DNA of 36,732 nucleotides, from contig CAXTFU010000007.1 of NCBI GenBank assembly GCA_964243385.1, forward strand, positions 1 through 36,732, written 5' to 3'. Positions 13,170 through 28,923 of the stretch are shown here, one piece after another. A program made the translations under genes and the position numbers. The first letter of the stretch is position 1. Every line of letters begins with the position of its first letter. The notes under the pieces are model-generated. The model was given only the letters and a program-made list of their open reading frames with translations, made no database searches and was not told where the DNA came from. This stretch comes from an uncultured bacterium. Its GTDB lineage: Bacteria > Actinomycetota > Actinomycetes > Mycobacteriales > SCTD01.

Positions 13170-13484
13170 GTGCCGACGAACCGTAGGACCCCCACCGCGG
13201 TAACCCGGGCGCTCGTGCGCCTGGGGGAGCAATTCGGCACATGGAGGCGGCTGCGGCAGCTGACCGTCGAAGAAGTGGCCGACCGCGCCGACGTCGGTTC
13301 GAGGACCGTGGCAAGGCTCGAGGACGGCCAGGGAGTCACCCTCGAGAACGCGCTGCGGATAGCGCGGGCCCTCGGCGTCCTCGACGTCCTGCTTGAGGCC
13401 CTCGACCCGTACGCGAGCGACGTCGGCCGCCTCCGGGCCGACGAAGCCCTTCCGGACCGCGTCCGCCGGGTCCGACGGCCATGA
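13170..13484 (+). CDS. hipB: XRE-family HTH antitoxin (HipB-like)
   Basis: The HTH reads LTVEEVADRADVGSRTVARLEDGQGVTLENALRIARALG. The GTG start has AAGGAGG upstream. Its stop overlaps the hipA ATG (ATGA at 13481-13484). Confidence 0.85.
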   Translation: MPTNRRTPTAVTRALVRLGEQFGTWRRLRQLTVEEVADRADVGSRTVARLEDGQGVTLENALRIARALGVLDVLLEALDPYASDVGRLRADEALPDRVRRVRRP

Positions 13485-14731
13485 CCGAGGCGCAGGTGTG
13501 GGCCGTCGCAGCAGGACAGGACCTGCGGGCCGGGACGCTGTACTCGCATCGCCGCCGGGGCGTCGAGTCGTCGACCTTCGCCTACCTGCCGGAGTACCTG
13601 GCCGCGCCAGGCGCCTGGTCCCTGGACCCCGAGCTGCCGTTGCGCAGCGGCGCCTTCCAGACGAGGGCCCGTGCGCCGTTGTTCGGCGCCTTCACCGACT
13701 GCGCACCGGACCGCTGGGGACGCACCTTGATGACCCGCCGGGAAGCCGCGCTGGCCCGCGCGCAGGACCGCGCCCAGCGCTCGCTCGGAGAAGCGGACTT
13801 CCTCCTGGGGGTCCGGGACGACCTCAGGCAGGGCGCCCTGCGGTTCCGGGACACCGGCGGCGACGGCCCGTTCCTGGCCGACGACGAGACGGGGGTCCCA
13901 GCGCTCACCGACCTGCCCGTCCTGCTCGACCTCGCGGCCCGCGCGGAGCGCGACACCGCGGACCTGCCCGACCTGCAACGGCTCATCCGGGTCGGCAGCT
14001 CGCTGGGCGGCGCCCGCCCGAAAGCGCACGTGCTCCGCCCCGACGGACGGGTCGCCATAGCCAAGTTCCCGAGCGCGGACCGCGACACCTGGAACGTGAT
14101 GGCGTGGGAGAAGGTTGCGCTCGACCTCGCGGACCGGGCGGGCATCACCGTCCCGGCGTCGACGCTGCTGCGCCTCGCGGACCGGAGCGTGCTCGTCCTG
14201 GACCGGTTCGACAGGGACCGCTCAGGCGGCCGCGTCGGCTACGCCAGCGCGATGACGATGCTCGAGGCTTCCGACGGGGACAGACGGTCCTACCTCGACA
14301 TCGCCGAGGTGGTGGAGTCCCGGTCCGGCAGGGCCACCGAGGAACTCGCCGAGCTCTGGCGCCGCGTCGTGTTCTCCGTCCTGATCTCCAACACCGACGA
14401 CCACCTGCGCAACCACGGGTTCCTTCATGTCAAGGGCGACGTGTGGCGCCTGGCCCCGGCGTTCGACCTCAACCCGGACCCGTCGCCCGGCCCGACGTAC
14501 CTCGCGACGGCCATCGACGACTCCGACGACGTCGCGAGCATCAACGCCGCCCTGGCGGTCGCCGACTTCTTCCGGCTGACGGATCAGCGGGCCCGGTCGC
14601 TGCTCGACGAGGTCGCGGGCGCCGTCTCCGCGTGGCAGGCGGTCGCCCGGTCCCACGGTCTCAGCCAGCGAGAGATCGACGGCATGGCGCCGGCCTTCGC
14701 CGCGCTGCGGGACGCGTCGACGCCTGCGTAG
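13481..14731 (+). CDS. hipA: Type II toxin-antitoxin system HipA-family serine/threonine kinase toxin
   Basis: HipA motifs are present: SLGGARPKA, NTDDHLRNHGFL (catalytic loop) and LAPAFDLNP. The N-terminal coupling domain includes FGAFTDCAPDRWGR. Confidence 0.95.
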   Translation: MTEAQVWAVAAGQDLRAGTLYSHRRRGVESSTFAYLPEYLAAPGAWSLDPELPLRSGAFQTRARAPLFGAFTDCAPDRWGRTLMTRREAALARAQDRAQRSLGEADFLLGVRDDLRQGALRFRDTGGDGPFLADDETGVPALTDLPVLLDLAARAERDTADLPDLQRLIRVGSSLGGARPKAHVLRPDGRVAIAKFPSADRDTWNVMAWEKVALDLADRAGITVPASTLLRLADRSVLVLDRFDRDRSGGRVGYASAMTMLEASDGDRRSYLDIAEVVESRSGRATEELAELWRRVVFSVLISNTDDHLRNHGFLHVKGDVWRLAPAFDLNPDPSPGPTYLATAIDDSDDVASINAALAVADFFRLTDQRARSLLDEVAGAVSAWQAVARSHGLSQREIDGMAPAFAALRDASTPA

Positions 14732-15447
14732 CCCGAACCGTCGCAAACGACCAGCAGCCACGCGGAGGGGCCGCCGTCGCCTGGCCGGTGCGGACCGCTG
14801 CCGGGAGCGGTGGTGCTCCCTCCTCCCGACCGATCCGTGCCCGCGGCGCGGCGCACGGGTGCCGCCGGACGTGTCTCGCAGCATGACCGGTCGACACGTG
14901 TCCGAAAGCGGTCGGCGAGCAGCCGCCGCCCCCGCTGGCGCCGAGCCCCGTGACGGCTGATCGACCCAGGGCGCCGCCGGACGACCCGTGACCTTGCGCG
15001 CGACCCGTCGCTCGCGCCCCCCCCCCGGCAGTCCAATGCCGTGGCCAGCCGACGGACGGGCTCGTCGGAGCGGACCGCTTGACTCGAGGCGGCTGTGACC
15101 GTCAGCACCGCCGCGGACGCATCGAGCGCCGCCCAGGCCCGCGCCCGGCGACCCGCAGCCACTTCCATGGCCCGCTGGCCGGCCCACTGACCCCCTGGCC
15201 ATCTCGACGGCGGCGTCGGGTCACAGACTTCAACGAGCAGCAGCGGGGCGCGCGCCGTCCAGATCAGACACGCGCGCGGGCCCCGGACGTCCGTCCGGGT
15301 CCGCTGCTGGCGAATACTGAGCGGCGGTGGCTGTTCGCCGCGCCGCGCGCTCGCCCGGCAGCGGCCAGACCGAAAGGCGCCCGCCCGCGCAGCGTCAGGT
15401 CCGCCCGCCGGCCCTGGTCGCCCCGAGCGGTGAGGCAAGATGTCGCC

Positions 15448-15762
15448 ATGGGCGCAGCAACCGGTCCGGCTGCCGGAACGGGTTGGCGACGGCGGCTCGC
15501 GTACGGGCTGGAACGCCGCCCGCTCGAGCCGCACCGCCCCTTGCCCTGGGTGCTGCGCGGCTTGTCGTGGCTTGCCGTGGCGACCGCCTGCGTCGGGTTC
15601 GGCGCAGTCGCGCCGCTCGTCGCCACCGACGCGTCCGCCGGCGCGACAGCAGTCGCGGCGAATGCGGGGGTCGCCTTGCTCGGAGCGGCCGCGGTCCTGC
15701 GGACATGCGCTCACCTCAGCCGACCGCTGCCGGTCGCGCTGGCGCCTGAGGACCGATCCTGA
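15448..15762 (+). CDS. Small hypothetical membrane protein
   Basis: It is the internal ATG-initiated part of track ORF 15079..15762. It has two hydrophobic helices (LSWLAVATACVGFGAVAPLVA and AVAANAGVALLGAAAVL). Third-position GC is coding-like. I recognise no family. Confidence 0.45.
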   Translation: MGAATGPAAGTGWRRRLAYGLERRPLEPHRPLPWVLRGLSWLAVATACVGFGAVAPLVATDASAGATAVAANAGVALLGAAAVLRTCAHLSRPLPVALAPEDRS

Positions 15763-15763
15763 C

Positions 15764-16279
15764 GTGATCCGCGTCTGGGCTGTCGCCTCCCTCGTGTCGG
15801 TGGTCATGTCCTCCGCGGCTTTCCTCAGCGCGCGCACAGGTCTGCGGAACCTGCGGGAGGCCGCCAGCGCACGTCGGCGCCCGCCGCTGGAGCCGGCGGA
15901 GGTCGCAGCAGGCGCGCGCCCGGTGTCCAGCGCGCCGACCGGATGGCCGCGACCGGCAGACATAGGCGACGCACCGCTGGCCGCGGCCTACCGCGACTAC
16001 GCCCGCGACCGCCGCGAGACGGCCGTCCTTCTCGGCGAACTGCTCATCCTCACCGCGGGCGCAGCCCTCGGCGCATCAATCCCTGATGCGCTCCGCGGCG
16101 GTTGGGAGAGCTGGCCGTTCCTCGCGGCGCTTCTTTTCGGTGCGCTCGGCGTGATACTCCGGCGTCGGGGCGAGGTCTGGTGGGTGCACGTGGCCGCGAT
16201 CTACGCGCGCCGTCTCGGGGACCTCCAGACGCCGCCCGTTCCACCGCCGGCCGTGCCGCCGTGGTGGCGCCGACGCTGA
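15764..16279 (+). CDS. Hypothetical membrane protein
   Basis: The GTG start lies 1 nt after the previous stop. It has TM helices (VWAVASLVSVVMSSAAFL, LLGELLILTAGAALGA and WPFLAALLFGALGVIL). I recognise no family. Confidence 0.5.
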   Translation: MIRVWAVASLVSVVMSSAAFLSARTGLRNLREAASARRRPPLEPAEVAAGARPVSSAPTGWPRPADIGDAPLAAAYRDYARDRRETAVLLGELLILTAGAALGASIPDALRGGWESWPFLAALLFGALGVILRRRGEVWWVHVAAIYARRLGDLQTPPVPPPAVPPWWRRR

Positions 16280-16802
16280 GCGCGCCCGTCAAGCCGGCCA
16301 CAGGACGCACCCCGGCAGCCAGACATCGAACTCCGGCCGCGGCCGCCGCGACGCGAGGGCGGCCCGGTCGCGGCGGGCGGGCCCCGAAGATGGGGCGCCC
16401 TGCCAGGCCAGGCGCATGCCCACCCGCTTGCTGTCCGTCCCGGACGCCGCAAGCGGCTGAACAGACGCAGACGCAGACGCGGCTGCGGACCTGCGGGCGG
16501 AGCCGCCGCGCCGGTTGCCGGTGCTCGCAGCGCACCGGCGGGAGCGCACGGGACCGGCCGCACGGAGCGCCGCCGCCCGGCTCGCACCACCGGGCGGGCA
16601 GGATGGGGCGCCGCACGGGCGTCCGCGACAGCACAGCGGTCGGCCGGCCCGCGGCGGCGCCCAGCCGCGATGCCGACGCCCGGGTGCCGCCCGGCGCCCG
16701 TCCACGCCTCCTGATCGGCAGATGCCCGCGACGATGCCTCCGCCCGGACCAGCCCGCACGGCCGACGCGCCCGTCGACCCCGGGCGGCCCGCCGGTCGGC
16801 GC

Positions 16803-17510
16803 TCAGCGCCCCGGCGCGTCCTCCCACAGCAGGACATGCCACCGGGGCGTGAGCGACCAGCCCCGTCGCAGGACGTCGTCAGCGATCCGGCGCGACGTGG
16901 ACAGGACGCCGGCGCCGGTCGTGCCCTCGGCCATGACGGTCACCCGTCGCATGCCGTGGCGGTCGACGAGGACCTGGGCTTCGTCGAGGTCGGCAGCGTC
17001 CCGGGCCACGAACTTGAACCAGACGTTGTCGCCGCCGGCGAAGGCGGCTAGCGCGTCGTCCCTTACGCGCCGTCGCAGCGGGACACCGCTGTGGGCGAGC
17101 TTCGGGCTGACGACGACCGTCTCGAAGGCCGAGAGCAGCCCGCCGGCCGGTACGTGCACGCCGGCCGTCTCGAGGTGCACGCGCCGGCCGGCCAGCGCGG
17201 GTTCGGCGAGGAGCGCCCGCACGCCGTCCTGCTGCGCCAACGGCTCGCCGCCGGTGACCACGACGATGCCGTGCGGGCCGGCGCGGCGGTCCGCCTCGAC
17301 GGCGGCCCGTCCGGTGTTCAGCGTCCGCGGAGGGGACGTCATGCGTGACGGGTCCCAGCTGTACGCGGTGTCGCACCAGGAGCAGGCCACGGGGCAGCCG
17401 GACAGTCTGATGAACGACGCGACGTGGCCGACGGCTGGGCCCTCGCCCTGGACCGTCGGCCCGAAGATCTCGCTCACCCTCAGACTCGGCTTGGTCGGGC
17501 CTCCGGTCAC
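16803..17510 (-). CDS. queE: 7-carboxy-7-deazaguanine synthase (radical SAM, QueE)
   Basis: The N-terminus reads SEIFGPTVQGEGPAVGHVASFIRLSGCPVACSWCDT, which contains the CX3CX2C radical-SAM cluster. VVVTGGEPL is also present, and the length of about 235 aa is typical. The GTG start overlaps the queD stop (GTGA at 17507-17510). The track ORF start at 17786 is over-extended. Confidence 0.9.
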   Translation of the reverse strand: MTGGPTKPSLRVSEIFGPTVQGEGPAVGHVASFIRLSGCPVACSWCDTAYSWDPSRMTSPPRTLNTGRAAVEADRRAGPHGIVVVTGGEPLAQQDGVRALLAEPALAGRRVHLETAGVHVPAGGLLSAFETVVVSPKLAHSGVPLRRRVRDDALAAFAGGDNVWFKFVARDAADLDEAQVLVDRHGMRRVTVMAEGTTGAGVLSTSRRIADDVLRRGWSLTPRWHVLLWEDAPGR

Positions 17511-17857
17511 GCCCGGGCCGCGGCTCTGCTCGTGGCGGTCTCCCAGACGGTGACCTCGCTCGCGGGGAGCCCGGCCGTCCTGAGCCAGTCGAGGAAGGTC
17601 ACCGCGAGCACCTCGGCGGTCGGGTTCGGCACGAGGTCGTTCAGGAGCGTGTGGTCGCACTTGTCGACGACCTCGCGTCGGACGACGGACCCGAGGTCGG
17701 CGAAGTCCATGACGATCCCGTTCGCGTCGAGGTCGCCGCTCACGGTGACCTCGATGCGGTAGCTGTGCCCGTGGAGCCTGCCGCACTTCCCAGGGTGCCA
17801 GGGGAGGACGTGCGCGGCCTCGAAGCGGAACGCCTTGGTGATGGATACGGAGGGCAC
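17507..17857 (-). CDS. queD: 6-carboxy-5,6,7,8-tetrahydropterin synthase (QueD)
   Basis: The sequence ITKAFRFEAAHVLPWHPGKCGRLHGHSYRIEVTVSG...MDFADL...DH fits the T-fold QueD/PTPS family, including the CxxxHGH zinc and catalytic motif. The protein is 116 aa. It is the 3' end of the 511-aa track ORF 17507..19042, most of which is artefact. Confidence 0.9.
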   Translation of the reverse strand: MPSVSITKAFRFEAAHVLPWHPGKCGRLHGHSYRIEVTVSGDLDANGIVMDFADLGSVVRREVVDKCDHTLLNDLVPNPTAEVLAVTFLDWLRTAGLPASEVTVWETATSRAAARA

Positions 17858-17881
17858 CGGGGCAGGGTACCCACGACAGAA

Positions 17882-17891
17882 ATACATGTAT
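17882..17891. promoter_or_regulatory. Perfect 10-bp palindrome ATACATGTAT in the 43-bp divergent queD / XRE intergenic region (candidate operator and promoter core)
   Basis: It is seen directly and is the only AT-rich patch in the locus. TATAGT (17889-17894) fits an actinobacterial TANNNT -10 element and ends 6 nt before the ATG at 17901. That spacing suggests a leaderless transcript for the XRE gene. Confidence 0.4.
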
Positions 17892-17900
17892 AGTAATCGC

Positions 17901-18203
17901 ATGGCGCGATCAGGGCAAACGGAGGCGGACCGGGAGTACGGGGCCAGGCTCGGGCGGGCGCTGGCGGCGGCCCGAGCCGGCACCGGCCTGAGCGGCGGGC
18001 AGTTGTCGGACCGGTGCGGGGTCAGCGTCGACGCGATACGCAGCGTCGAGAGCGGCCGCGTCGCCAGCCCGGGCTTCCCGCTCGTCGCCGCGCTCGGGGG
18101 CGCGCTCGGGGTCTCGCTGGACGCCTTGGCGCTGCAGGCCGCGGACTCCGACCACCGGACCGCCCGCGCGACGGCCGCCGGCCAGACCCGGGGCCGGCGA
18201 TGA
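17901..18203 (+). CDS. XRE-family HTH transcriptional regulator
   Basis: The XRE-type HTH reads LSGGQLSDRCGVSVDAIRSVESGR. The protein is 100 aa. Its stop overlaps the next ATG (ATGA at 18200-18203). Confidence 0.8.
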   Translation: MARSGQTEADREYGARLGRALAAARAGTGLSGGQLSDRCGVSVDAIRSVESGRVASPGFPLVAALGGALGVSLDALALQAADSDHRTARATAAGQTRGRR

Positions 18204-19063
18204 GCGCCGCCGCTGCGCTCCGGCCGACGCTCCCAGCGGGCGCCGGGCACGGCCCGCACGGGTCCCGAGGACGTCTGGAGGGCTTGCGCGTATCGCCCGA
18301 CCTGCGGCGCGACGTCTGGTGGGGCCAGCCCTGGCAGCTCGCCACCGCGTCCTACTGGACGGCGCTCGCGCTGGCGCTGCCGGGCCCGGCCACCTACCGG
18401 CTCGGCCGCACGCTCGACGAGGAGGTCGCCGCGTGTCTCCTGGGCGGCCACGGCATCCCGGGACCGATCGGGAACGCCGCGTTCCGCGCGGTGCGGGACG
18501 CCGGCCTCCTCGACGGAGCTCCCGTCCCGGGGCCCGAGCCAATCGAGCGCCTGCTGCGCCAGCCGCTCACGGTCCGCGGAGCAACCATGAGATACCGGTT
18601 CCCTCGCCAACGGGCGCGGCGGCTGTCGGCCGCGCTCGGCCACGTCCGATCTTCGGCGCCGCCCGAGGACGACGTCGAGCTCCGGGACTGGCTCACCGGC
18701 GCCCCTGGCATCGGAATGAAAACGGCGAGCTGGGTCGTCCGTAACCACCGCGCCAGCGACCGCGTCGCGATCATCGACGTCCACGTGCAGCGGGCCGGGA
18801 CCGCCGCCGGCGTCTTCGATCCGGCGTGGCGGCTGCCCCGCCAGTACACGCTGCTCGAGCGGGCGTTCCTTGCCTGGGCGGCGGCAGGCGGGGTCTCCGC
18901 GGCCCGCCTCGACGCCTGCATCTGGGCCGAGCTGGCCGGGGCCGGTGCCCACGCGCGCGACGTCCTCGGGGTCGCGCGCCTGTCCGACACGCCCGTTCCG
19001 GTATGGCCGTGCGCGCAGAGCGCTGGCTTCGGCGCCCCGCATCCGGCCGGGCCGCCGACGTGA
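18200..19063 (+). CDS. HhH-GPD superfamily N-glycosylase/DNA lyase, Ogg2 type (COG1059-like)
   Basis: From memory it aligns block by block with archaeal Ogg (M. jannaschii type). The blocks are CLLGGHGIPGPIGN, YRFPRQRARRL, LRDWLTGAPGIGMKTASWVVRNHRASDRVAIIDVHVQRA (HhH, with Lys in GMKTAS and Asp in IIDVH) and LPRQYTLLERAFLAWAAAGGVSAARLDACIW. Confidence 0.8.
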   Translation: MSAAAALRPTLPAGAGHGPHGSRGRLEGLRVSPDLRRDVWWGQPWQLATASYWTALALALPGPATYRLGRTLDEEVAACLLGGHGIPGPIGNAAFRAVRDAGLLDGAPVPGPEPIERLLRQPLTVRGATMRYRFPRQRARRLSAALGHVRSSAPPEDDVELRDWLTGAPGIGMKTASWVVRNHRASDRVAIIDVHVQRAGTAAGVFDPAWRLPRQYTLLERAFLAWAAAGGVSAARLDACIWAELAGAGAHARDVLGVARLSDTPVPVWPCAQSAGFGAPHPAGPPT

Positions 19064-19133
19064 CCGCCGAGCGCGCCGGCCGGCAGCGGGGCACTATCTT
19101 CCCGCAGCGGACCACGGCGGGGGACGGAGACGG

Positions 19134-19460
19134 GTGAGCGGTAGCGATCCGAGCGTGCAGCGGACGGGCTCGGGCGGGGAAGGGGCCGACGAGTGCCCCG
19201 GGCAGGCCTTCGAAACGGTCCTGGCATCGCCGGAACCTGATGCGGTCGCCGGGCTCGAGGCAGACGACCTCCTGGACATCGTCGCGGTCGACGCCCCCAC
19301 CCGCGGCGTGCACGCCCGGACACTCGACGGCGCCTACGTGGGCGCCGTCGTCAGGGACATCGCCCGGCTGCGTCGCTGCATCGCGTCCGGCAGCCGCTAC
19401 GAGGCGGACGTCGTGCGCGTGGCAGGCGGATCAGTGACAGTCGTGGTGCGGTCCGCGTGA
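19134..19460 (+). CDS. Small hypothetical protein (108 aa)
   Basis: The in-frame GTG has GGAG 5 nt upstream. Composition is acidic and balanced (ETVLASPEPDAVAGLEADDLLDIVAVD...YVGAVVRDIARLRRCIASGSRYEADVVRVAGGSVTVVVR). Its stop overlaps the next start (GTGA at 19457-19460). I recognise no family. Confidence 0.5.
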   Translation: MSGSDPSVQRTGSGGEGADECPGQAFETVLASPEPDAVAGLEADDLLDIVAVDAPTRGVHARTLDGAYVGAVVRDIARLRRCIASGSRYEADVVRVAGGSVTVVVRSA

Positions 19461-20683
19461 TCGTCGTCGGCGGCACCTACCGCGAAGAGGTCGCGCTCCC
19501 GTCCTGGGTAGCGCTCGCAGGCTCCGGCCTGAGGGCCGCCGCCGCGCTGAGCCAGGCTCCCGTGCCCCCCGGGCTCCTCACCGCGCTTGACGACGACACG
19601 CAGGACGAGGCGGAGCTGGTCTGCGACGCGCTCGGCGTCGTCGTCAACAGCGCGGTCGATCGCACCGAACCGGTCGGCTTCAGCTACTTCACGCCGCTCA
19701 GCGCCCCCCGGGTGAACGGGCCGAAGTCGCGCCTGCGCAACGGCCTGCGCGGCGAGGACGACACGGTCCTGGCGTTCGGGCTCGTCGAAGCCGGAGACGT
19801 CGTCCTGCGCGGCCGCACCGTCGTGCTGGACCCGCAGCGCCCGCGCGACCTCGCGCCGTTCTCGGCGGACAACGTCGAGGCTGACCGCTTGGTCGTGGTC
19901 GCCAACACGAGCGAGATCCGTCAGTTCGGGGAGGCGACCGGTGAACGAGAGGCGGCCGAGGCGCTGCTCGGGCGGGGCGTCGACGCCGTGATCACGAAGC
20001 GTGCCGCGGCCGGGTGCACCGTGAGCTGGCTGGAGGGCTCCGCGGCCCGGCACGAGGACGTCGGGGCTCGCCCGACCGCCAGGGTCTGGCCGATAGGCAG
20101 CGGCGACGTGTTCTCCGCCGGGCTCGCGCACGCCCTCGACCGCGGCGCGGACCTCGTGGAGGCGGCGCGCGTCGGGTCGGCCGCGGCCGCGCACTGGTGC
20201 TCTACGCAGGTAGCGGCCCTGCCCGGGCCGATCCTCGCCGGAACCGCCGCCGACCTGCCAGCCCCGCTTCCGCCCGCCCGGCCGCTGGTCTATCTCGCCG
20301 GGCCTTTCTTCTCGGCAGGCGAGCGGTGGCTCGTCGAGGAGCTGCGCACGAGCCTGCGCAGCCTCGGCGTGGACGTCTTCTCGCCTCTGCACGACGTCGG
20401 CACCGGAGGGCCCGAGGTGGCGCAGGCAGATCTGGACGGCCTGCGCCTGTGCGACTCCGTCCTCGCCCTCCTCGACGGCGCGGATCCCGGCACGGTCTTC
20501 GAGGTCGGCTGGGCCGTCCGTGACGGGACGCCCGTCGTCGGCTACGCGACCGCGCTCGACGCGGAGGTCAGCAAGATGATGTCCGGCACCGAAGTCGAGC
20601 TGCACCGTGACCTTTCCACCGCCTGCTACCGCGCGGCGTGGGCGGGCATGGGCATGCGCGTCGTTCCCGGCTGGGCCGGATGA
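19457..20683 (+). CDS. Fusion protein: PfkB-family sugar/nucleoside kinase domain plus nucleoside 2-deoxyribosyltransferase-like domain
   Basis: The N-terminal ~265 aa have the ribokinase/PfkB fold signature WPIGSGDVFSAGLAHAL (GxGD catalytic motif). The C-terminal ~130 aa carry NDT-family motifs VYLAGPFFSAGER and DGADPGTVFEVGWA, which retains the conserved Glu. That motif is followed by GTPVVGY. Confidence 0.85.
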   Translation: MIVVGGTYREEVALPSWVALAGSGLRAAAALSQAPVPPGLLTALDDDTQDEAELVCDALGVVVNSAVDRTEPVGFSYFTPLSAPRVNGPKSRLRNGLRGEDDTVLAFGLVEAGDVVLRGRTVVLDPQRPRDLAPFSADNVEADRLVVVANTSEIRQFGEATGEREAAEALLGRGVDAVITKRAAAGCTVSWLEGSAARHEDVGARPTARVWPIGSGDVFSAGLAHALDRGADLVEAARVGSAAAAHWCSTQVAALPGPILAGTAADLPAPLPPARPLVYLAGPFFSAGERWLVEELRTSLRSLGVDVFSPLHDVGTGGPEVAQADLDGLRLCDSVLALLDGADPGTVFEVGWAVRDGTPVVGYATALDAEVSKMMSGTEVELHRDLSTACYRAAWAGMGMRVVPGWAG

Positions 20684-21324
20684 CCGCCGCGGACGGCCGT
20701 CGCCTCTCCCTGCTGCTGCTCTCCGGCGGGCTCGACAGCACCGCGCTCGCCGCCCGTGACCGCCCCGACCTCACCCTGTTCGTCGACTACGGGCAGCGCC
20801 CGGCGCGCGCCGAGGCGAGGGCAGCCGGTGCTGTCGCCGCAGAGCTCGGGCTGCCGCACGCACGCGTGCGCGTCGACGCGACCGCCGTCGGGTCCGGGCT
20901 CATGTCCGCGACCGAGTCCTCGGCCAGCAACGCCCGTCCCAGCCCCGAATGGTGGCCATTCCGCAACCAGCTCCTCGTCACGGTCGCCGCCGCCTGGCTC
21001 GTCCGGTCCGGCCACATAGGCCCGGACGGCCCCGGCGCCGACATAGCCGTCGGCTCCGTGCGGCAGGACGGCAGGCGCCATCTCGACGGAACCGCCGCTT
21101 TCTACGCGGCGCTCGACGCGCTGCTGCGGACCCAGGAATTCAGCATCGGCTGCGTCGCGCCCGCCCTGGACCAGTCGACGGAGGACCTGGTCACAGCCGG
21201 CGCGACCACCGACGCCGTACTCGGGTGGACCCACTCGTGCCATGTCGCCGACGCCCCGTGCATGGCCTGCCCCGGCTGTCACAAGCGCGAGCAGGTGCTC
21301 GATGCCGTCGGGCGGCTGAGATGA
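20680..21324 (+). CDS. queC: QueC-like 7-cyano-7-deazaguanine synthase family protein (PP-loop ATPase)
   Basis: The PP-loop is LLLSGGLDSTAL. DYGQR and WWPFRNQLLVTVAAAW (compare FVPGRN in QueC) are present. The C-terminal zinc cluster SCHVADAPCMACPGCHKR follows C-x6-C-x2-C-x2-C. It has ATGA overlaps at both ends (20680 and 21321). Confidence 0.85.
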   Translation: MTAADGRRLSLLLLSGGLDSTALAARDRPDLTLFVDYGQRPARAEARAAGAVAAELGLPHARVRVDATAVGSGLMSATESSASNARPSPEWWPFRNQLLVTVAAAWLVRSGHIGPDGPGADIAVGSVRQDGRRHLDGTAAFYAALDALLRTQEFSIGCVAPALDQSTEDLVTAGATTDAVLGWTHSCHVADAPCMACPGCHKREQVLDAVGRLR

Positions 21325-22253
21325 AGGAATCGGCTGCGAGCCCGACCGTCGCCCCGCTTGCCCCGGAAGGCGACCACCTGACGATCCGGCTCGACGCCAA
21401 CGGGGCAGCCGCAGGCACCGATGACGGCACCATGTGGGCGCTCGGCCACGAGACGGCCGCCCGGATCCGCGAGCTCGCGTCCTCGCTTCGCCCCGCCGTC
21501 GGCGCTGAAGGCCCGACTCCCGCCGCGCGGGCGTCCTACGGCGAGGCCGACCGGCTCCGGATCGTCGACTCCGCGGACGCCCCCGCCGTCGCCACCCCGA
21601 CGGACCACTGGGTCCAGCGACTCGCCGCCGACGTCTGCCGACCGGTGCCGTCGCCGCCCCGCCGGCCCCGCGCGCCGTCGCGGCCGCTCGACCAGGTGCT
21701 CACGGAACGCGCCTCGCGGGCCGGCACAGGCCCGGTCCCCGGCGACACCCTCCACGTCCTCCTCGAACGGCTCCGCGAGCCGAGGCAAACCGCCCTGGAC
21801 GCCGCCGGACGGGCCTGGGAGAGCCGCCCCTACCCCTCGGCCGGAGGCACCCACAGCCTCGACGTACTCGTCCTCGCCAGGCACGTCACGGGCTGGCGCA
21901 ACGGCTGGTACAGGTGGCAGCCCCACGACGGCCCGGTGCCCGTCCTCCCGCCGCGGACCCGCGACGCCGTCACGGCCATCGGCCTCGCGCTCCGCGGCCG
22001 GGAGACCAGCGCGTACCTGCTCGCGGTCGCCGACCTGCCGCTCCTGCACGCCCGCTACCCGAACGGCGCCGCCCTCGGCTGGCGCGACGCGGGCTGCCTG
22101 CTCGCGACCGCCCACCTCATCGCGACCGACCTCGGCCTCGCTTCCACGATCGTCGGCGCGACCGCCGCGCTCGACCCTGCCTGCGGCAGCGCCCGTCCCG
22201 GCGACATACGCCTGCTCGGCGCGCTCGCCCTCGCCGGCCCTCCGGCCACGTGA
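21321..22253 (+). CDS. SagB/ThcOx-type nitroreductase-superfamily protein with a ~140-aa N-terminal extension
   Basis: The sequence RPYPSAGGTHSLDVLVLARHVTGWRNGWYRWQP...YLLAVADL...GWRDAGCLLATAHLIATDLGLAS matches the SagB-type dehydrogenase pattern (R-x-x-PSAG...Y.Y). I do not recognise the N-terminal part. Confidence 0.7.
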   Translation: MKESAASPTVAPLAPEGDHLTIRLDANGAAAGTDDGTMWALGHETAARIRELASSLRPAVGAEGPTPAARASYGEADRLRIVDSADAPAVATPTDHWVQRLAADVCRPVPSPPRRPRAPSRPLDQVLTERASRAGTGPVPGDTLHVLLERLREPRQTALDAAGRAWESRPYPSAGGTHSLDVLVLARHVTGWRNGWYRWQPHDGPVPVLPPRTRDAVTAIGLALRGRETSAYLLAVADLPLLHARYPNGAALGWRDAGCLLATAHLIATDLGLASTIVGATAALDPACGSARPGDIRLLGALALAGPPAT

Positions 22254-22801
22254 ACGCCAGGAAGCACCGCCGCGGTGAGGACGCTCCCGCCAAGGACGCC
22301 GCCGAGCTCGACCTCCTCCCGCGCGGCCCCCAGCCCAGGACGGTCACCGTCACCCGAGACGGCGTGGAGGGCGCGGCGCCCCAGGCGCCCGAAGGCAGCG
22401 TCGACGTCGCCTCCGTGACCGTGGCCGGACGGAGCGTCAGGGCTTACGAGCTGATGGCCCTCGCAGCGGGACGGCGCACAACCGAGATCAGCAGCCGCCA
22501 GGCGGTGCGGGCCTTGCAGGAGATGGGCTTCGCCGTCACCGGCCCCGCCGGCGGCGCACGCCCGCCGGCAGCCTCACCGCAAGGGCCCGGAGCGCCCGCG
22601 CCGTCCGAGCAGCCGGTACTTGACCCGCGAACGGCCAAGGACCTGCGGCGTTACCCGGGCGAGTGGGTCGCCGTGCGAGGACGGCACATCGCGGCGCACG
22701 GCCCGAGCCTTCGGGCCGTGCTCGCCGAGGCCCGGCCCAGCGAGGACGACCCGGCAACGGTGCTCTGGGTGCCGCGCGGCGCCGGCGAGGCACGCGCATG
22801 A
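22250..22801 (+). CDS. Hypothetical protein with a DUF5678-like C-terminal domain
   Basis: The GTG start overlaps the previous stop (GTGA). The C-terminus YPGEWVAVRGRHIAAHGPSLRAVLAEARPSEDDPATVLWVP fits the W-V-A-h...G...h-h-A-x-G...L...h...A pattern I associate with DUF5678. The central part is low-complexity. Confidence 0.55.
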   Translation: MNARKHRRGEDAPAKDAAELDLLPRGPQPRTVTVTRDGVEGAAPQAPEGSVDVASVTVAGRSVRAYELMALAAGRRTTEISSRQAVRALQEMGFAVTGPAGGARPPAASPQGPGAPAPSEQPVLDPRTAKDLRRYPGEWVAVRGRHIAAHGPSLRAVLAEARPSEDDPATVLWVPRGAGEARA

Positions 22802-23205
22802 AGTTCCCGTTCGGCACGCTGCCGCTGCAAGCGGCCCGCAGGCCAATCGTCAGCGTCACCTTCCCCGGACTGCCCGGCGTCCGCGTCCCGGCGCTCGTAG
22901 ACAGCGGAGCCACAGCCAACCGCTTCGACGTCGCGTTCGCCCAGCAGCTCGGGCTCGACCTGACCCAGGCCCGACAGCAGACGCTGAGGATCGCAGGCGG
23001 CCAATACTTCGCCCACGTCCTCGAGACCCGGCTCCGCGTCGGACGATGGGAGTGGCAGGCGCCCGTCGGATTCGTCGAGGGATGGACGCACCCTCACGGC
23101 GTCCTAGGCATCGACGGCTTCTTCGACCGCTTCACGGTCAGGTTCGAGGCCGCGTCGTCGTATCTCGTGGTCCAGAGCAGGTCCCGGCAGGGCAAGGACC
23201 TCTGA
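22798..23205 (+). CDS. Retropepsin-like (clan AA) aspartic protease
   Basis: The active-site motif is ALVDSGATAN (D-S-G-A), and the downstream motif is GVLGIDGFFDRF (hhG-x-D). The size of 135 aa fits a single-lobe, homodimeric retropepsin-like fold. The start overlaps the previous stop (ATGA at 22798-22801). Confidence 0.7.
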   Translation: MKFPFGTLPLQAARRPIVSVTFPGLPGVRVPALVDSGATANRFDVAFAQQLGLDLTQARQQTLRIAGGQYFAHVLETRLRVGRWEWQAPVGFVEGWTHPHGVLGIDGFFDRFTVRFEAASSYLVVQSRSRQGKDL

Positions 23206-23213
23206 CCGTCCCG

Positions 23214-23236
23214 GGCGACGTCAGGACATCGTCGCC
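23214..23236 (+). terminator. Weak candidate terminator hairpin after the operon
   Basis: The structure is GGCGACG-(9 nt)-CGTCGCC, a 7-bp stem that starts 9 nt after the stop at 23205. No U-tract follows. Confidence 0.25.
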
Positions 23237-23980
23237 GAGACCCGGTCGCGCATGAGCCTGCCAGGGCGCACGTCAGGCCTGACCAGCCGGTGGGGACGAA
23301 CCGGTCAAGCCGCACCGTGCCGCCGGGCCGCCTCGCCGACCGGTCGCCGCTCAGCGCCCCGTGCGCCAGACGGCATTCGTGCGGGATAGGCGGAGCGAGG
23401 ATCCGCCCAGAACCGTTCCGCTCAGCGGCCGTTCACCAGCCCGAACCTGGCGCGGGCCTCCCGGGACAGACGCCGGACCGGCTCCGCTGCTGCGGCCCGC
23501 GACAAGCCGGCGGCCGGCGGTCGGCACGTATTCGGCCGAGCCTGGCGACCCGCCTGCCGTGGCGCGGGGCGCGGGGCGCGGCCAGCGTGACGACCCGGCG
23601 GGTCGCCGCAAACGGACAACGAGCCCTGGCGGCGCAGCCGACCGCGTCGAAGGAGGGCGCCCTCCCGCGGCGACGGCGGGCCGCAGGCCGCGTTCGGCAC
23701 CGGGGCGCACTCCGGAGGGCTGGGCCGCCGCCGCAGCAGCCGCACGACGACCGCTCCTCGCCCGCACCGCGAGCCGCTCAGGAGCTCAGGTTGTTGTAGT
23801 GGTCGGCCCCGGCAGCCGCGCGAGGAGCCTAGCGCCGCGCAGGGAAGCAGCAGGCGGCGGCCCGAGCTCTCGATCCGTTAACTGAGCCGGTCGCGGCTCC
23901 TGCGGGACCGGGTTCCTGGACGACGCCGGCGGTGAGCCAGCGGTGGGCCGCGGTGGCAGCGGCCGGGGGCTGCACCCGAG

Positions 23981-24973
23981 TCACCGGGCGTCGAGGGCGA
24001 GCTCCCTGCGGTCGCCGAACAGGCCCTGCGGCCTGAAGATCATGAGCAGCATGAGCCCGAGGCCGACGAGCATGAAGCGCACCTGGCCGATCTCGGAGGT
24101 GGTGAGGACGGTGTCGGAGATGTACCCCGCCGACTTGGCCTGCGTGAGGACGTTGTCGGTGAGGGACAGCAGCGTCCAGAAGATCATGGCGCCGATGACC
24201 GGTCCGAGCACGCGGGCGGCGCCGCCGAGGATGACGATCGTGTAGGCGAAGAACGTCGTCTCGGTGCCGAAGAAGTCGGGCTGGACGGCGGCGTTGCCCC
24301 AGGCGGTGACGAACCCGGCGAGGCAGCCGAGCGTGCCGCCGAGCACGAGGCTCTGCAGCTTGTACGAGTAGACGTCCTTGCCGAGGCTGCGGACGGCGTC
24401 CTCGTCCTCGCGGATGGCCTTCAGGACGCGTCCCCACGGGCTGCGCATGAGCATGAACACCAGCAGGCACGACAGGGCTACGAGCGTCCAGCCGACGGTG
24501 AGCGCCCAGGTCGCCCGTTCGTTGAACGCGACGCGGCCGATGCCGTAGCGCCCCTCGCCGTAGGGGTTGATGGAGTAGAAGCCTGCGGCGAACCGCCCGA
24601 GGCCGTCCGAGCCGCCGGTGTACTCCAGCAGCGTGGCCGACCGGAACAGCATGCGGACGATCTCGGCGGCGGCGATCGTGACGATCGCGAGGTAGTCGGC
24701 GCGCAGGCGCAGCGTCGGCGCGCCGAGCAGCACCGCCAGCAGGACCACGCCGAGCAGGCCCACGGCGACGCCGGCCAGGGTCGGCAGGCCGAACGTCGCC
24801 ACTGTGATCGCGAGCCCGTACCCCGCGACGGCCAGGAACGCCGACTGGCCGAAGTTCAGCAGGCCGGTGTAGCCGAAGTGCACATTCAGGCCGATCGCCG
24901 CGAGGGCGAACACGACCGTGTCGAGGCCCACCATCGCGCGCAGCGCGTTGGTGATGATCAGTCCCCAGTCCAT
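23981..24973 (-). CDS. livM: Branched-chain amino acid ABC transporter permease (LivM-type)
   Basis: The sequence GLNVHFGYTGLLNFGQSAFLAVAGYG...REDEDAVRSLGKDVYSYKL... is typical of LivM/BraE permeases, and there are multiple TM segments. Confidence 0.9.
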   Translation of the reverse strand: MDWGLIITNALRAMVGLDTVVFALAAIGLNVHFGYTGLLNFGQSAFLAVAGYGLAITVATFGLPTLAGVAVGLLGVVLLAVLLGAPTLRLRADYLAIVTIAAAEIVRMLFRSATLLEYTGGSDGLGRFAAGFYSINPYGEGRYGIGRVAFNERATWALTVGWTLVALSCLLVFMLMRSPWGRVLKAIREDEDAVRSLGKDVYSYKLQSLVLGGTLGCLAGFVTAWGNAAVQPDFFGTETTFFAYTIVILGGAARVLGPVIGAMIFWTLLSLTDNVLTQAKSAGYISDTVLTTSEIGQVRFMLVGLGLMLLMIFRPQGLFGDRRELALDAR

Positions 24974-27882: not shown

Positions 27883-28923
27883 CATGCTTATCCGCTTCGC
27901 TCCGCCCGCCCTTGTCGTGTCAGGGCGTTGACGGATCGAGGACGGGCGGGCGGTTGCCAGGGCCGTCGGCGTAGATCTGGCGGTAGGTGGTGGGCGCCTG
28001 CTGTCCGCCGAGGCCGAGCAGTGACTGGAAGGCGGCCATCGGGGTGCGACGTCGGTTGAACCGGAACACGTACTCGTCGAGGTAGACCTGCAGGTGCTCC
28101 TTGGACACGCCCCGGTGGGTGCCCTGGAGCCAGGTCTTGAGGTGGCTGATCACCCGGTGGACGCGCGGCAGGATCTCGTCCAGGTCGTCCGCCGCCACCC
28201 GCCGGGGCCGCTGCGTGCGCGGGCGGTGCTCGTATCCGAGCTTGGCGAGTCGGCGGTAGGAGCTCCAGCCATCGGTGTGCACAACGGCGCCTGCCTGTAC
28301 GACCTCGCGGACGAAGCCGGTCAACGTCGCGGTCGAGGCGTCCTCGACAACTTGCATGCGCACGCGACCCGATCCGGCCCCACGGACCTCGACCGCCACG
28401 ACGACGAGGGCCTTCGTGCCGTGCTGGCGGCCACCGCGCAACTCGCGGTCGAGCCCTCCGACGAAGCACTCGTCGACCTCAACGGCTTGAGTGAGCAGCG
28501 TCCGTTCCGGGTTCACCGTCGCGCGGCGCAGCTTCTGCAGCATCATCCAGGCGGTCTCATAGCGGCTGAGCCCGAGCTGACGCTGCAGCTGCGTCGCCGA
28601 GATCCCTGGAGTGCTGGTCGTCATCAGGTACGCCGCCCAGAACCACAGGTGCAGGGGCGTCCGCGTGCCGTGCAGCACTGTGCCGGCGGTCAGCGACACC
28701 TGATAGCGGCACGAGCCGCACTGCCAGAGCAACCGCTTGCGCAGCACCGTGGCCTCGAGGCCGAAGCAGCGCGGGCACCGGTAGCCCTCCGGCCAGCGCG
28801 ACAGGATCAGGTGCTCCCGGCAGGCGTCATCGTCGGGGAACCAGCGCTGGAACTCGACGATGCTGCGAGGGAAGTCAGGCCGCGGCACACCCCAACGCTA
28901 GCGGAGCGAAGCGGATAAGCATG
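27883..28923 (-). mobile_element. Intact IS1595-family insertion sequence (1041 bp)
   Basis: It has 23-bp perfect terminal inverted repeats: CATGCTTATCCGCTTCGCTCCGC at 27883-27905, and its reverse complement at 28901-28923. An 8-bp direct repeat TGTGCGCT flanks the element at 27875-27882 and 28924-28931. It carries a single full-length transposase ORF. Confidence 0.92.
27920..28888 (-). CDS. IS1595-family transposase
   Basis: The N-terminal zinc-ribbon reads CPRCFG...WQCGSCRYQ. The DDE_Tnp_IS1595-type core includes VEVDECFVGG, VHTDGWSSY and LDEYVFRFNRR. Confidence 0.95.
   Translation of the reverse strand: MPRPDFPRSIVEFQRWFPDDDACREHLILSRWPEGYRCPRCFGLEATVLRKRLLWQCGSCRYQVSLTAGTVLHGTRTPLHLWFWAAYLMTTSTPGISATQLQRQLGLSRYETAWMMLQKLRRATVNPERTLLTQAVEVDECFVGGLDRELRGGRQHGTKALVVVAVEVRGAGSGRVRMQVVEDASTATLTGFVREVVQAGAVVHTDGWSSYRRLAKLGYEHRPRTQRPRRVAADDLDEILPRVHRVISHLKTWLQGTHRGVSKEHLQVYLDEYVFRFNRRRTPMAAFQSLLGLGGQQAPTTYRQIYADGPGNRPPVLDPSTP

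Follow-up and report, generated by a model that had tools for sequence, protein, structure and literature searches.

Only in 2025-26 were QueC-family enzymes shown to attach a nucleobase to proteins, in type IV CBASS (an antiphage signalling system based on cyclic oligonucleotides) and in Qat. In type IV CBASS, Cap9 adenylates 7-carboxy-7-deazaguanine (CDG) and ligates it to the methionine-cleaved N-terminus of a CD-NTase (cGAS/DncV-like nucleotidyltransferase). The authors of the Cap9 work point out that N9 of the protein-linked 7-amido-7-deazaguanine (NDG) is left free, which allows ribose addition, and the OGG-like Cap11 has been proposed to reverse transfer to a target. QatC of the Qat system binds QatB, in which a long disordered N-terminus and an MGTS motif are both essential. 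A gene cassette that probably extends this chemistry is described here. It lies at positions 16803-23205 of a 36,732-nucleotide stretch of contig CAXTFU010000007.1, from an uncultured bacterium of the Mycobacteriales; the whole stretch is called the window.

The family of its QueC-like protein has already been catalogued. Libby et al. 2026 (PMC13329287) split PF06508 into clusters, of which cluster 4 carries SGGxDS, YGQ(x)6E and CH(x)5CxxCxGCxK, is slightly shorter than QueC and is mainly proteobacterial. Its neighbours are a fusion of a PfkB kinase with a nucleoside 2-deoxyribosyltransferase (PfkB-NDT, 89%), a nitroreductase (23%) and helix-turn-helix (HTH) proteins, and "purine salvage" was suggested as its role. 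This is the only paper of the searched literature that mentions the family; an Ogg-like gene, a small protein, a linkage to queD and queE and a defence role of the cassette appear in none. Here, the family is recast as a probable third QueC-based defence system.

The conserved core of the cassette is very probably a mobile five-gene system. It encodes an Ogg2-like glycosylase, a small protein of about 110 residues, a PfkB::NDT fusion, the QueC-like enzyme and a SagB-like flavoprotein. The favoured reading is that the cassette is a self-contained mobile module whose QueC-like enzyme ligates CDG to the small protein, which is predicted to be HIRAN-like, and that it serves defence independently of CD-NTases and of tRNA-guanine transglycosylases (TGT). 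A probability of about 0.45 is given to this reading as a whole. An earlier note, made from the letters of this DNA, had come part of the way: the locus is indeed non-canonical and behaves like an accessory or defence-island element, and a protein acceptor had not been foreseen.

Evidence for the core comes from relatives in other genomes. A PfkB::NDT profile, run against one genome of each GTDB species, gave 197 relatives. For these, 80 loci were fetched, and the genes in them were counted by tblastn with the ten window proteins and a second query set from Yersinia. In 80/80 loci, the PfkB::NDT gene is immediately followed by the QueC-like gene. An Ogg-like gene was seen in 76/80, as a rule some 1.1 kb upstream but in some cases downstream in convergent orientation, and in about 95% of loci a small open reading frame (ORF) ends at or overlaps the PfkB::NDT start. 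Detection of a SagB-like gene succeeded in 61/80 loci, and L019 (loci are given L numbers where they must be told apart) also has one, truncated by the contig end. The earlier note had asked whether the gene combination recurs elsewhere; all 80 fetched loci of the 197 found share the core combination.

The core is found in at least 197 species genomes of at least nine phyla. Its carriers are Actinomycetota, Alpha-, Beta- and Gammaproteobacteria, Geobacter/Myxococcota, Acidobacteriota, Verrucomicrobiota, Planctomycetota, Bacteroidota, Chloroflexota and Gemmatimonadota. Two word-indexed searches gave more than 1000 and more than 1800 cluster representatives of the PfkB::NDT protein. In homologue alignments, the catalytic motifs are kept in all five core families.

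Mobility of the module as a unit can be seen in L081, a metagenomic contig whose PfkB::NDT protein is 79% identical to that of the window. L081 has ten genes identical in kind and order, and its flanks are unrelated, with MMPL and AMP-binding genes rather than hipBA. Nucleotide similarity between the two is limited to 16817-23159. Because similarity stops at the module edges and the flanks are unrelated, 16803-23205 is regarded as a transferable unit.

The QueC-like gene (20680-21324, plus strand) is a core gene and encodes a PP-loop ATPase of 214 residues that matches PF06508 at 3e-22. Against the QueC equivalog model TIGR00364 the protein scores 54.7 bits, where the cut-off is 150.3; this bears out the description of the locus in the earlier note as a non-canonical 7-deazaguanine locus. 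It carries SGGLDS, YGQRPARAE and CHVADAPCMACPGCHK. Because the last of these is an exact match to CH(x)5CxxCxGCxK, the protein is placed in PF06508 cluster 4; the spacer from YGQ to E has five residues in the window protein and six in PMC13329287. The canonical cluster-1 signature (YxQxHxxE, VPxRN and YPDC) is absent, and the protein has YGQ...E, WWPxRNQ and H-x-D-G instead. Across 81 homologues, SGGxDS, YGQ...E, WWPxRNQ, D130, H134, D136 and the zinc-binding cysteines are conserved. A canonical queuosine locus was considered and rejected, since the QueC-like protein falls short of both the equivalog cut-off and the motifs.

Among solved structures, the best match of the QueC-like protein is Cap9 (9NTO) and not canonical QueC. 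The likeness to the QueC and OGG accessory genes of type IV CBASS that had been pointed out earlier is therefore apt. The Cap9 residues that contact NDG (R86, Y115 and D117) align with R95, H134 and D136, which are invariant in 81/81 sequences. The PADLOC QueC model also matches the protein, at 1.2e-13, and its gene shares a 4-nucleotide (nt) overlap with the PfkB::NDT gene. By analogy with Cap9, the protein is predicted to be a CDG-activating ligase, and CDG itself is probably its substrate.

The supply of CDG points the same way. Divergent from the core, the window carries queD (17507-17857, minus strand; PF01242, 6e-32), for 6-carboxytetrahydropterin synthase, and a queE-like gene (16803-17510, minus strand; Pfam Radical_SAM and Fer4_12), for a radical S-adenosylmethionine (SAM) enzyme of the CDG synthase type. 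QueD, accessory to the module, provides the substrate of QueE; on the TIGR03367 equivalog model it scores 102.3 bits, above the cut-off of 89.25. The QueE-like protein, an accessory for CDG supply, carries the radical-SAM motif CxxxCxxC, and its five best NCBIfam matches are all QueE models, each below its cut-off (best 96.2 against 206.1 bits).

One or both of queD and queE stand beside the cassette in 22/35 loci of Actinomycetota and Chloroflexota, against 0/45 loci of other phyla (Fisher p = 5e-11). A second, canonical queC was found in none of the 80 loci. A module that brings in the pathway as far as CDG, and no further, appears to need CDG itself. Actinomycetota generally lack queuosine synthesis. 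Indirect support for its usual absence from this phylum is found in PMC6063277. The recruitment of queD-queE without queC in Actinomycetota is thus comparative evidence for CDG, and not 7-cyano-7-deazaguanine (preQ0), as the shared currency of these systems. The earlier note had counted both genes as parts of the module; the genes are real, and they form a lineage-specific addition rather than part of the core.

The most informative gene of the cassette had earlier been listed as a small unknown. The gene is real, as had been said. It lies at 19134-19460 on the plus strand, belongs to the core and encodes 108 residues from a GTG start that sits 6 nt after a GGAG ribosome-binding site. In 71 loci, its product begins M-[S/T]-G, with Ser at position 2 in 65 and Thr in 6, and with Gly at position 3 in 71/71. 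A variable linker of 10-50 residues, rich in Gly, Ser and Pro, follows the motif and leads to a domain of about 85 residues with two conserved cysteines. Among sampled distant homologues, most start with MSG and 5/36 (14%) with MGG or MAG; all of these permit removal of the initiator methionine.

The small-protein family is large. A word-indexed search gave only 15 close relatives, and HMMER found 834 members at E<=1e-3 among 1.84 billion representatives, nearly all of 102-128 residues and none with a Pfam domain. In the AlphaFold2 (AF2) model of the window protein, built on a shallow alignment of 15 sequences, the mean predicted local distance difference test score (pLDDT) is 85. Residues 1-25 are disordered in the model (6-17 with pLDDT below 50), and the remainder is a small beta-rich domain. 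Its top Foldseek matches in the Protein Data Bank (PDB) are the HIRAN domains of lp_0118 (3K2Y) and HLTF (4XZG, 6KCS), with probability 1.0 and template modelling (TM) scores of 0.57-0.69 (TMt 0.52-0.69), and its top two matches in the viral library BFVD are annotated as HIRAN. Sequence searches of Pfam (including HIRAN), NCBIfam and the sequences of PDB chains (including solved HIRAN) gave no match, so the HIRAN assignment is made at the level of fold. HIRAN domains bind the 3'-OH ends of single-stranded DNA.

Some variants of the protein were seen. Tandem double HIRAN-like domains behind one N-terminal tail occur in L089 (9237-10004, Mycobacteroides abscessus) and in P0142, P0148 and P0221, and the M. 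abscessus protein additionally bears an acidic insertion.

An N-terminal motif, a disordered tail and a QueC-family gene partner are also features of QatB and of the CD-NTase that serve as substrates of QatC and Cap9, which suggests a similar part for the small protein. Its N-terminus is, by a small margin of belief, the deazaguanine acceptor. Because the small protein has a QueC partner, a disordered tail and an invariant terminal motif, a protein-linked deazaguanine is preferred to a merely free one.

A sequence of five steps can be proposed, of which the first draws on the established functions of QueD and QueE and the other four are inferred. In the first, QueD and QueE would make CDG, fed by the GTP cyclohydrolase I of the host; actinobacterial versions carry queD-queE in cis, and hosts with their own synthesis of queuosine precursors would supply CDG themselves. 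In the second, the QueC-like enzyme would adenylate the CDG carboxylate and join CDG to the N-terminal amine of the small protein (Ser2 after removal of methionine), the same chemistry that Cap9 performs on the CD-NTase and that has been proposed for QatC on QatB. In the third, where a SagB-like protein is present, the Ser or Thr side chain would cyclise onto the new amide carbonyl to give an oxazoline, which the SagB-like enzyme would oxidise to an oxazole. The energy for cyclisation would come from a second ATP-dependent activation, comparable to the amide-to-nitrile step of QueC.

In the fourth step, the free N9 of the tethered base would receive a 2-deoxyribosyl group from the NDT domain, acting in place of the TGT-like Cap10, and the fused PfkB kinase would phosphorylate it. 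This would leave a nucleotide attached to a protein with a HIRAN-like domain, which is predicted to bind the 3' ends of DNA. In the fifth, the Ogg2-like glycosylase/lyase would act on DNA, either removing adducts (as a reset or for self-protection, as proposed for Cap11) or making the lesion or end that is recognised.

The enzyme of the fourth step is encoded by the core gene at 19457-20683 (plus strand; PF00294 and PF05014). The PfkB motifs GG, NxxE and GSGD (D217) and the NDT motifs YLAxPFF, SPxH and DxGTxxExG (E349) are invariant in 81 sequences. Ribokinases are matched by the PfkB::NDT profile, and the closest solved relatives of the NDT domain are bona fide nucleoside 2-deoxyribosyltransferases. 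In the AF2 model (pLDDT 92), the kinase domain resembles ribokinase, pseudouridine kinase, adenosine kinase and other nucleoside kinases. The nucleotide-building step is nonetheless tentative, and the odds are set against it.

These intact and fused domains also fit a route through free metabolites, which had been the first suggestion of the earlier note (base exchange plus phosphorylation). The QueC-like enzyme would make a free base, such as 7-amido-7-deazaguanine (ADG), preQ0 or another amide, and the NDT and PfkB domains would turn it into a 7-deaza-dG nucleotide. The nucleotide would poison phage replication or enter DNA, with the Ogg-like protein protecting or editing host DNA and the small protein serving as a DNA-binding accessory. 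Free bases are the substrates of known NDTs, CDG is supplied in cis in Actinomycetota, the QueC-like enzyme retains its deazaguanine-binding residues, and dGTPase and dCTP-deaminase-like genes are repeated neighbours of the cassette. Set against this, the M-[S/T]-G terminus and disordered tail (71/71 loci), which are hallmarks of the QatB and CdnD substrates, are left unexplained, as is an azoline-oxidase-type flavoprotein, and the QueC-like enzyme is without the signature (YxQxHxxE, VPxRN, YPDC) that preQ0 synthesis requires. The free-metabolite route is unlikely as a whole, and base exchange with phosphorylation survives as an element of the protein-linked mechanism as well as in this rival.

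The flavoprotein is encoded at 21321-22253 (plus strand) by a SagB-like gene that is core in about three quarters of loci; it is a flavin mononucleotide (FMN) dehydrogenase of the azoline-oxidase clade and matches TIGR03605 at 9e-13. The top solved matches of the family profile are, in order, CyaGox 5LQ4 (7e-17), 8PZ5, BmdC 7LY4-7 and McbC 6GOS, with the K/R-Y motif aligned, so that only azoline (thiazoline or oxazoline) oxidases head the list. RxS, R..PSxG, Y246 and R255 are conserved. The strong preference for Ser or Thr at position 2 of the small protein fits the oxazole idea, since a Ser or Thr side chain would cyclise. No YcaO cyclodehydratase or E1-like partner was found in the module or its conserved neighbourhood. 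If the second half-reaction of QueC, which uses ATP to activate an amide oxygen, were applied to the new CDG-Ser amide, it would yield the oxazoline, which would make for a chemically economical route. The oxazole step is rated as doubtful.

Whether Ser/Thr at position 2 goes cleanly together with a SagB-like gene was examined, and it does not; the Methylobacterium clade has MSG without SagB-like. In this clade (Methylobacterium/Methylorubrum, L068-L079, about 11.7-13.5 kb in each), no SagB-like gene was seen, and a second small MSG-protein and a second PfkB::NDT directly follow the QueC-like gene, as a tandem duplication of the small-protein/NDT-kinase pair. Over 21321-21700, the SagB-like ORF of the window stands apart: it encodes 310 residues, where most homologues have 224-246, and its first 80 or so residues are poorly conserved. 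Either the protein is extended at its N-terminus in the window clade, or translation truly begins 3' of the ATG in the 4-nt overlap.

The last core enzyme, at 18200-19063 (plus strand), is an Ogg2-like DNA glycosylase and apurinic/apyrimidinic lyase of the HhH-GPD (helix-hairpin-helix) type, matched by PF22175 Ogg-HhH. Its best match in a solved structure is Ogg2 9O00 (1e-7). The Lys and Asp of Ogg2 that are mutated in 9O02 and 9O01 correspond in the alignment to K174 and D193, both of which are kept in 76/77 homologues.

This conservation speaks for a second idea of the earlier note, a TGT-independent DNA modification or restriction system, in which the Ogg-like enzyme would excise guanine at specific sites and a deazaguanine derivative would be installed. 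Such a mark would label self or damage foreign DNA, with the HIRAN-like protein targeting DNA and a Dam-like methyltransferase making a second mark in some lineages. The predicted DNA-end-binding fold of the small protein and the location in defence islands would suit it, as would a D12-class methyltransferase-like gene co-oriented with the Ogg-like gene in eight loci and in E. coli and Citrobacter. However, no HhH-GPD glycosylase is known for base insertion, no restriction nuclease or helicase is a conserved partner, the methyltransferase-like gene occurs in a minority of loci, and the kinase and the SagB-like protein go unexplained. This idea is a little less probable again than the route through free metabolites; it survives as a rival and, in the DNA-acting part that the protein-linked mechanism gives to the Ogg-like enzyme, as an element of that mechanism.

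The methyltransferase-like gene (Dam-like, with a DPPY motif, about 190-225 residues) is co-transcribed with the Ogg-like gene in some loci. It is found in L085/L086 (13285-13956, minus strand), L083/L084 (13233-13910, minus), L087 (15186-15755, minus) and L088 (12566-13234, minus), and also in L038, L041, L062 and L064; these are gammaproteobacterial versions, along with two from Acidobacteriota and one from Verrucomicrobiota. The window and most loci are without it. As a core part it was rejected, being present in only 8/86 loci.

Taken to its full length, the proposed mechanism would yield a CDG-Ser/Thr-HIRAN conjugate with an oxazole junction, deoxyribosylated at N9 and 5'-phosphorylated, that is joined to or exchanged into phage DNA 3' ends. 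There, it would act as a covalent protein cap that halts phage replication, and the Ogg2-like enzyme would erase such caps from host DNA. As a joint claim, this extended version is improbable.

Many copies of the cassette lie among defence genes. In Yersinia enterocolitica, it sits between a type II CBASS (SAVED, CD-NTase-like, ThiF, JAB) and an HD-dGTPase gene plus a Gabija-like OLD-TOPRIM/UvrD pair, and in Pseudomonas amygdali amid AAA_15, HNH and OLD-TOPRIM genes. In E. coli H6, it is carried on a tRNA-Sec island with an integrase, insertion sequence (IS) elements and a dGTPase-family gene, and on a Citrobacter plasmid its neighbours are a Gabija-like AAA-ATPase/helicase pair on one side and a gene annotated as "anti-phage dGTPase" on the other. 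In M. abscessus, a cassette with queDE is followed by a 510-residue protein of the DCD/dUTPase type, and in Xanthomonas the surrounding genes are toxin-antitoxin and helicase genes. Strong matches among the 138 nearest neighbours at 25 diverse loci include type I restriction, GajA, RmrA, bSEFIR/TIR, AriA, MADS, Mrr, SNF2, integrase and relaxase families. The cassette is carried by several plasmids, and it is present in just 22 of 5426 complete E. coli genomes (0.4%).

This pattern of distribution is typical of defence systems, as far as genome comparison can tell, and the cassette probably functions in defence or in conflict with phages or other mobile DNA. The unrelated flanks in L081 and the CBASS, Gabija-like, island and plasmid contexts agree with the earlier suggestion of an accessory or defence-island element. 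Neighbours that act on nucleotide pools recur, at 16111-17481 of L086, 16140-17555 of L087, 13660-15024 of L088 and 13263-14795 of L089: dGTPase-family genes in Yersinia, E. coli and the Citrobacter plasmid, and the 510-residue DCD/dUTPase-type gene in M. abscessus. Their recurrence could reflect a shared island or a functional link. In INPHARED, no phage genome has the PfkB::NDT fusion, and the matches there were confined to lone NDT domains from Enterococcus and Geobacillus phages; an origin in phage DNA modification was therefore rejected.

The same distribution bears on salvage. Pairing a kinase with an N-glycosidase is an established arrangement in catabolism (YeiC/YeiN, DNPH1), which, together with the resemblance of the PfkB domain to pseudouridine and nucleoside kinases, counts for the salvage or catabolism of deazapurine or modified nucleosides: the kinase would phosphorylate them, the NDT-like domain free the base and the QueC-like enzyme process it. 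This is the proposal made in the cluster-4 paper (PMC13329287). A salvage pathway would not be expected to recruit de novo queD-queE exactly where the host should be without the pathway, nor to be as sporadic as 0.4% of E. coli genomes and carried on islands and plasmids and within defence islands. It would also have no use for a DNA glycosylase and an N-terminally conserved HIRAN-like protein. Salvage is accordingly thought very unlikely.

The three remaining genes of the window cassette are lineage-specific regulatory or accessory parts. An XRE-family HTH regulator (17901-18203, plus strand; Pfam HTH_31, HTH_3) is found upstream of the Ogg-like gene in actinobacterial loci only, in most of them, and shows weak PADLOC matches to HTH_VI and capH (capH 1e-4). 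The gene for a DUF5678-domain protein (22250-22801, plus strand; PF18929, 6e-6) was found in L002 and L081 only among the fetched loci. Homologues of the retropepsin-like aspartic protease (22798-23205, plus strand; PF13650 and PF13975) lie 3' of the cassette only in L001-L005, L024 and L081, that is, in the six closest relatives and L081. Both of these accessory genes of the closest relatives are confined to a subclade that also has XRE. By comparison with CapH/CapP of CBASS, it is conceivable that XRE and the protease form a control pair of repressor and protease.

Such genes can also be fitted into a secondary-metabolite cluster, the third suggestion of the earlier note. Its product would be a deazapurine nucleoside like cadeguomycin, whose base is the CDG that queD and queE make, or a product like a ribosomally synthesised and post-translationally modified peptide (RiPP), with the aspartic protease cleaving the modified N-terminus. 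An aspartic protease, a SagB-like enzyme and a precursor-like small protein do occur together in the window subclade, and the genome is of high G+C (75%). Yet in most phyla the core occurs without queDE or protease, the small protein is a well-folded conserved domain and not a leader or core peptide, and a transporter, phosphoribosyltransferase, cluster-borne GTP cyclohydrolase and YcaO are all absent. A cassette that spans at least nine phyla and lies within defence islands fits the cadeguomycin-like cluster poorly, and a secondary-metabolite role is the most improbable of the explanations weighed here.

Several points weigh against the favoured reading, in which a deazaguanine is linked to the HIRAN-like protein for defence. 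The HIRAN assignment is modelled at fold level, with TM near 0.6 and from 15 sequences, and the acceptor role of the small protein is drawn from analogy. Known NDTs use free nucleosides and not protein-tethered bases. The cassette contains no classical effector (nuclease, NADase or pore), and as a defence system it appears neither in PADLOC v2 nor in the searched literature; when PADLOC v2.0.0 was run on the ten proteins, only the QueC and generic HTH models matched, and none did so for the Ogg-like, small, PfkB::NDT and SagB-like proteins. The SagB-like gene was undetected in 19/80 loci, about a quarter, including the Methylobacterium clade that keeps MSG. Because of these loci, and because 5/36 distant homologues begin MGG or MAG, the oxazole step cannot be general. 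Finally, the authors who described cluster 4 suggested purine salvage (PMC13329287).

The layout of the module in the window is compact. G+C is 70-79% across the window, which makes raw ORF lists uninformative, and a plot of G+C by codon position was used to assign one coding frame per segment from 16.8 to 23.2 kb. All ten gene calls are backed by this third-position (GC3) frame plot and by the translations, and seven 4-nt overlaps of the form ATGA or GTGA (TCAC on the minus strand) are found, at 17507, 18200, 19457, 20680, 21321, 22250 and 22798. The sole junction without an overlap in the plus-strand operon is a 70-bp gap between the Ogg-like gene and the small ORF. The GTG start of queD at 17857 was set by alignment to the QueD N-terminus, as the conserved FRFEAAH must be included. 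The ten genes, the divergent spacer and the seven overlaps had all been read correctly before, and every one of the earlier gene annotations is reproduced by Pfam and NCBIfam.

The spacer between queD and XRE (17858-17900, 43 bp) is the probable promoter/operator. A perfect 10-bp palindrome, ATACATGTAT, was spotted in it by eye and by alignment at 17882-17891, and a TATAGT hexamer follows 3' of the palindrome, 7 nt ahead of the XRE ATG. In L081, the palindrome core AATACATGTAT is kept although the flanking bases have diverged. Scans of the spacer for a sigma-70 consensus or terminator and with an inverted-repeat tool found nothing, so its promoter function is put forward only as putative. The palindrome may be an operator for XRE, and the XRE transcript may be leaderless.

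Around the module, the window is poor in recognisable genes. The toxin-antitoxin pair hipBA (13170-14731) lies 2 kb upstream and consists of hipB (HTH_31/HTH_3, 104 residues) and hipA (HipA_C, 416 residues), which overlap by 4 nt at 13481-13484. An IS1595 transposase (DDE_Tnp_IS1595 and a zinc ribbon; 27920-28888) lies 4.7 kb downstream, and the interval that separates it from the module holds a lone branched-chain amino-acid permease gene, an FAA-hydrolase gene and an aminotransferase gene. Pfam gave no match for the flank ORFs at 14.2-16.8 kb and 23.3-24.5 kb, leaving about 2 kb upstream and 0.8 kb downstream without a recognisable gene, in agreement with the hipBA, IS element and gene-poor surroundings noted earlier. 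In these flanks (14731-16803 and 23205-23981), long ORFs occur in several frames, none of which stands out clearly by GC3; they could be genes, novel or in decay, or scars left where the module inserted. An Rfam scan of the window found no preQ1 riboswitch and no other family, and a tRNA scan was also negative. Among the proteins encoded in the window, there is no TGT-family protein, QueF, FolE, QueA or phosphoribosyltransferase, so the absences listed in the earlier note, QueA not being among them, and the independence of TGT that it proposed, both stand.

If the favoured reading is right, the cassette is a third, widespread and independent use of QueC protein-deazaguanylation chemistry. As to what follows conjugation in such systems, an NDT-kinase fusion, a DNA glycosylase/lyase and a predicted DNA-end-binding acceptor suggest that the tethered base becomes a nucleotide or enters DNA. 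Native versions exist in E. coli, Yersinia and Citrobacter, which makes the idea open to genetics and mass spectrometry. There is also an issue of annotation: in thousands of genomes, these genes bear the names "7-cyano-7-deazaguanine synthase", "PfkB carbohydrate kinase" and "8-oxoguanine DNA glycosylase", which are misleading for the cassette.

Of the described systems, type IV CBASS (Cap9/Cap10/Cap11) is like the cassette in having a QueC-family enzyme with a deazaguanine-binding Arg, aromatic residue and Asp, the aromatic position being Tyr in Cap9 and His here. Both also have an OGG-type glycosylase, a base-exchange enzyme and a partner whose flexible tail bears a short, conserved motif at the N-terminus, and both are found in defence islands. 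They differ in that Pfam and PADLOC show no CD-NTase, TGT-like Cap10 or cyclic-nucleotide effector among the module and window proteins; the missing CD-NTase had been remarked on before, and no SMODS/CD-NTase match was found. In the cassette, the base exchanger is an NDT fused to PfkB, an azoline-oxidase-type flavoprotein is added, the predicted acceptor is HIRAN-like and starts with Ser/Thr-Gly rather than Gly, and the Ogg-like protein matches no PADLOC model.

QatABCD likewise combines a QueC-family enzyme with a small non-enzymatic partner that has a disordered N-terminus, beginning with MGTS in QatB and MSG[S/G] here. Unlike Qat, the module has no QatA KAP NTPase and no QatD TatD nuclease (Pfam, PADLOC). 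QatC has about 400 residues with extensions, and its Tyr/Asp base-binding residues are replaced, whereas the QueC-like enzyme has 214 residues and keeps His/Asp. QatB is all-helical, whereas the small protein is predicted to be beta-rich and HIRAN-like.

PF06508 cluster 4 (PMC13329287) is the same family, with the same motifs and with PfkB-NDT and nitroreductase neighbours; that paper does not cover the Ogg-like gene, the HIRAN-like small protein with its conserved N-terminus, the linkage to queD-queE in Actinomycetota or the setting in defence islands. The Dpd system and phage DpdA (PMC6884629) share a queD/queE/queC-type pathway put to a purpose other than tRNA, a genomic island and a theme of anti-restriction or defence, but the cassette is without the TGT-family DpdA, DpdB and DpdC-K. 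Clusters of the toyocamycin/tubercidin type differ in having a phosphoribosyltransferase, a cluster-borne GTP cyclohydrolase I and a canonical QueC (ToyM), none of which the module has. The canonical preQ0/queuosine pathway has Tgt, QueF, QueA and FolE, which are absent from the window proteins, and a QueC signature that the QueC-like enzyme lacks; it shares the QueD equivalog (102.3 bits).

Single components also have relatives elsewhere. Azoline oxidases of thiazole/oxazole-modified microcin (TOMM), cyanobactin and nonribosomal peptide synthetase pathways (SagB, McbC, CyaGox/ThcOx, BmdC) are the closest solved relatives of the SagB-like protein, which keeps the FMN-binding motifs RxS and R..PSxG as well as the K/R-Y motif. 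Unlike TOMM and linear azole-containing peptide (LAP) clusters, the cassette has no YcaO/E1-like cyclodehydratase and no recognisable precursor peptide, and the QueC-like protein is the only nearby ATP-dependent amide-activating enzyme. HIRAN domains (HLTF, lp_0118 and phage HIRAN proteins) superpose on the globular part of the small protein with Foldseek probability 1.0 (PDB, BFVD). The small protein differs from them in having no sequence similarity, two family-specific conserved cysteines and a long N-terminal tail, and its binding of DNA 3' ends is predicted from the modelled fold. Most likely, the cassette represents a third defence system built on QueC, one that depends on neither TGT nor CD-NTase.

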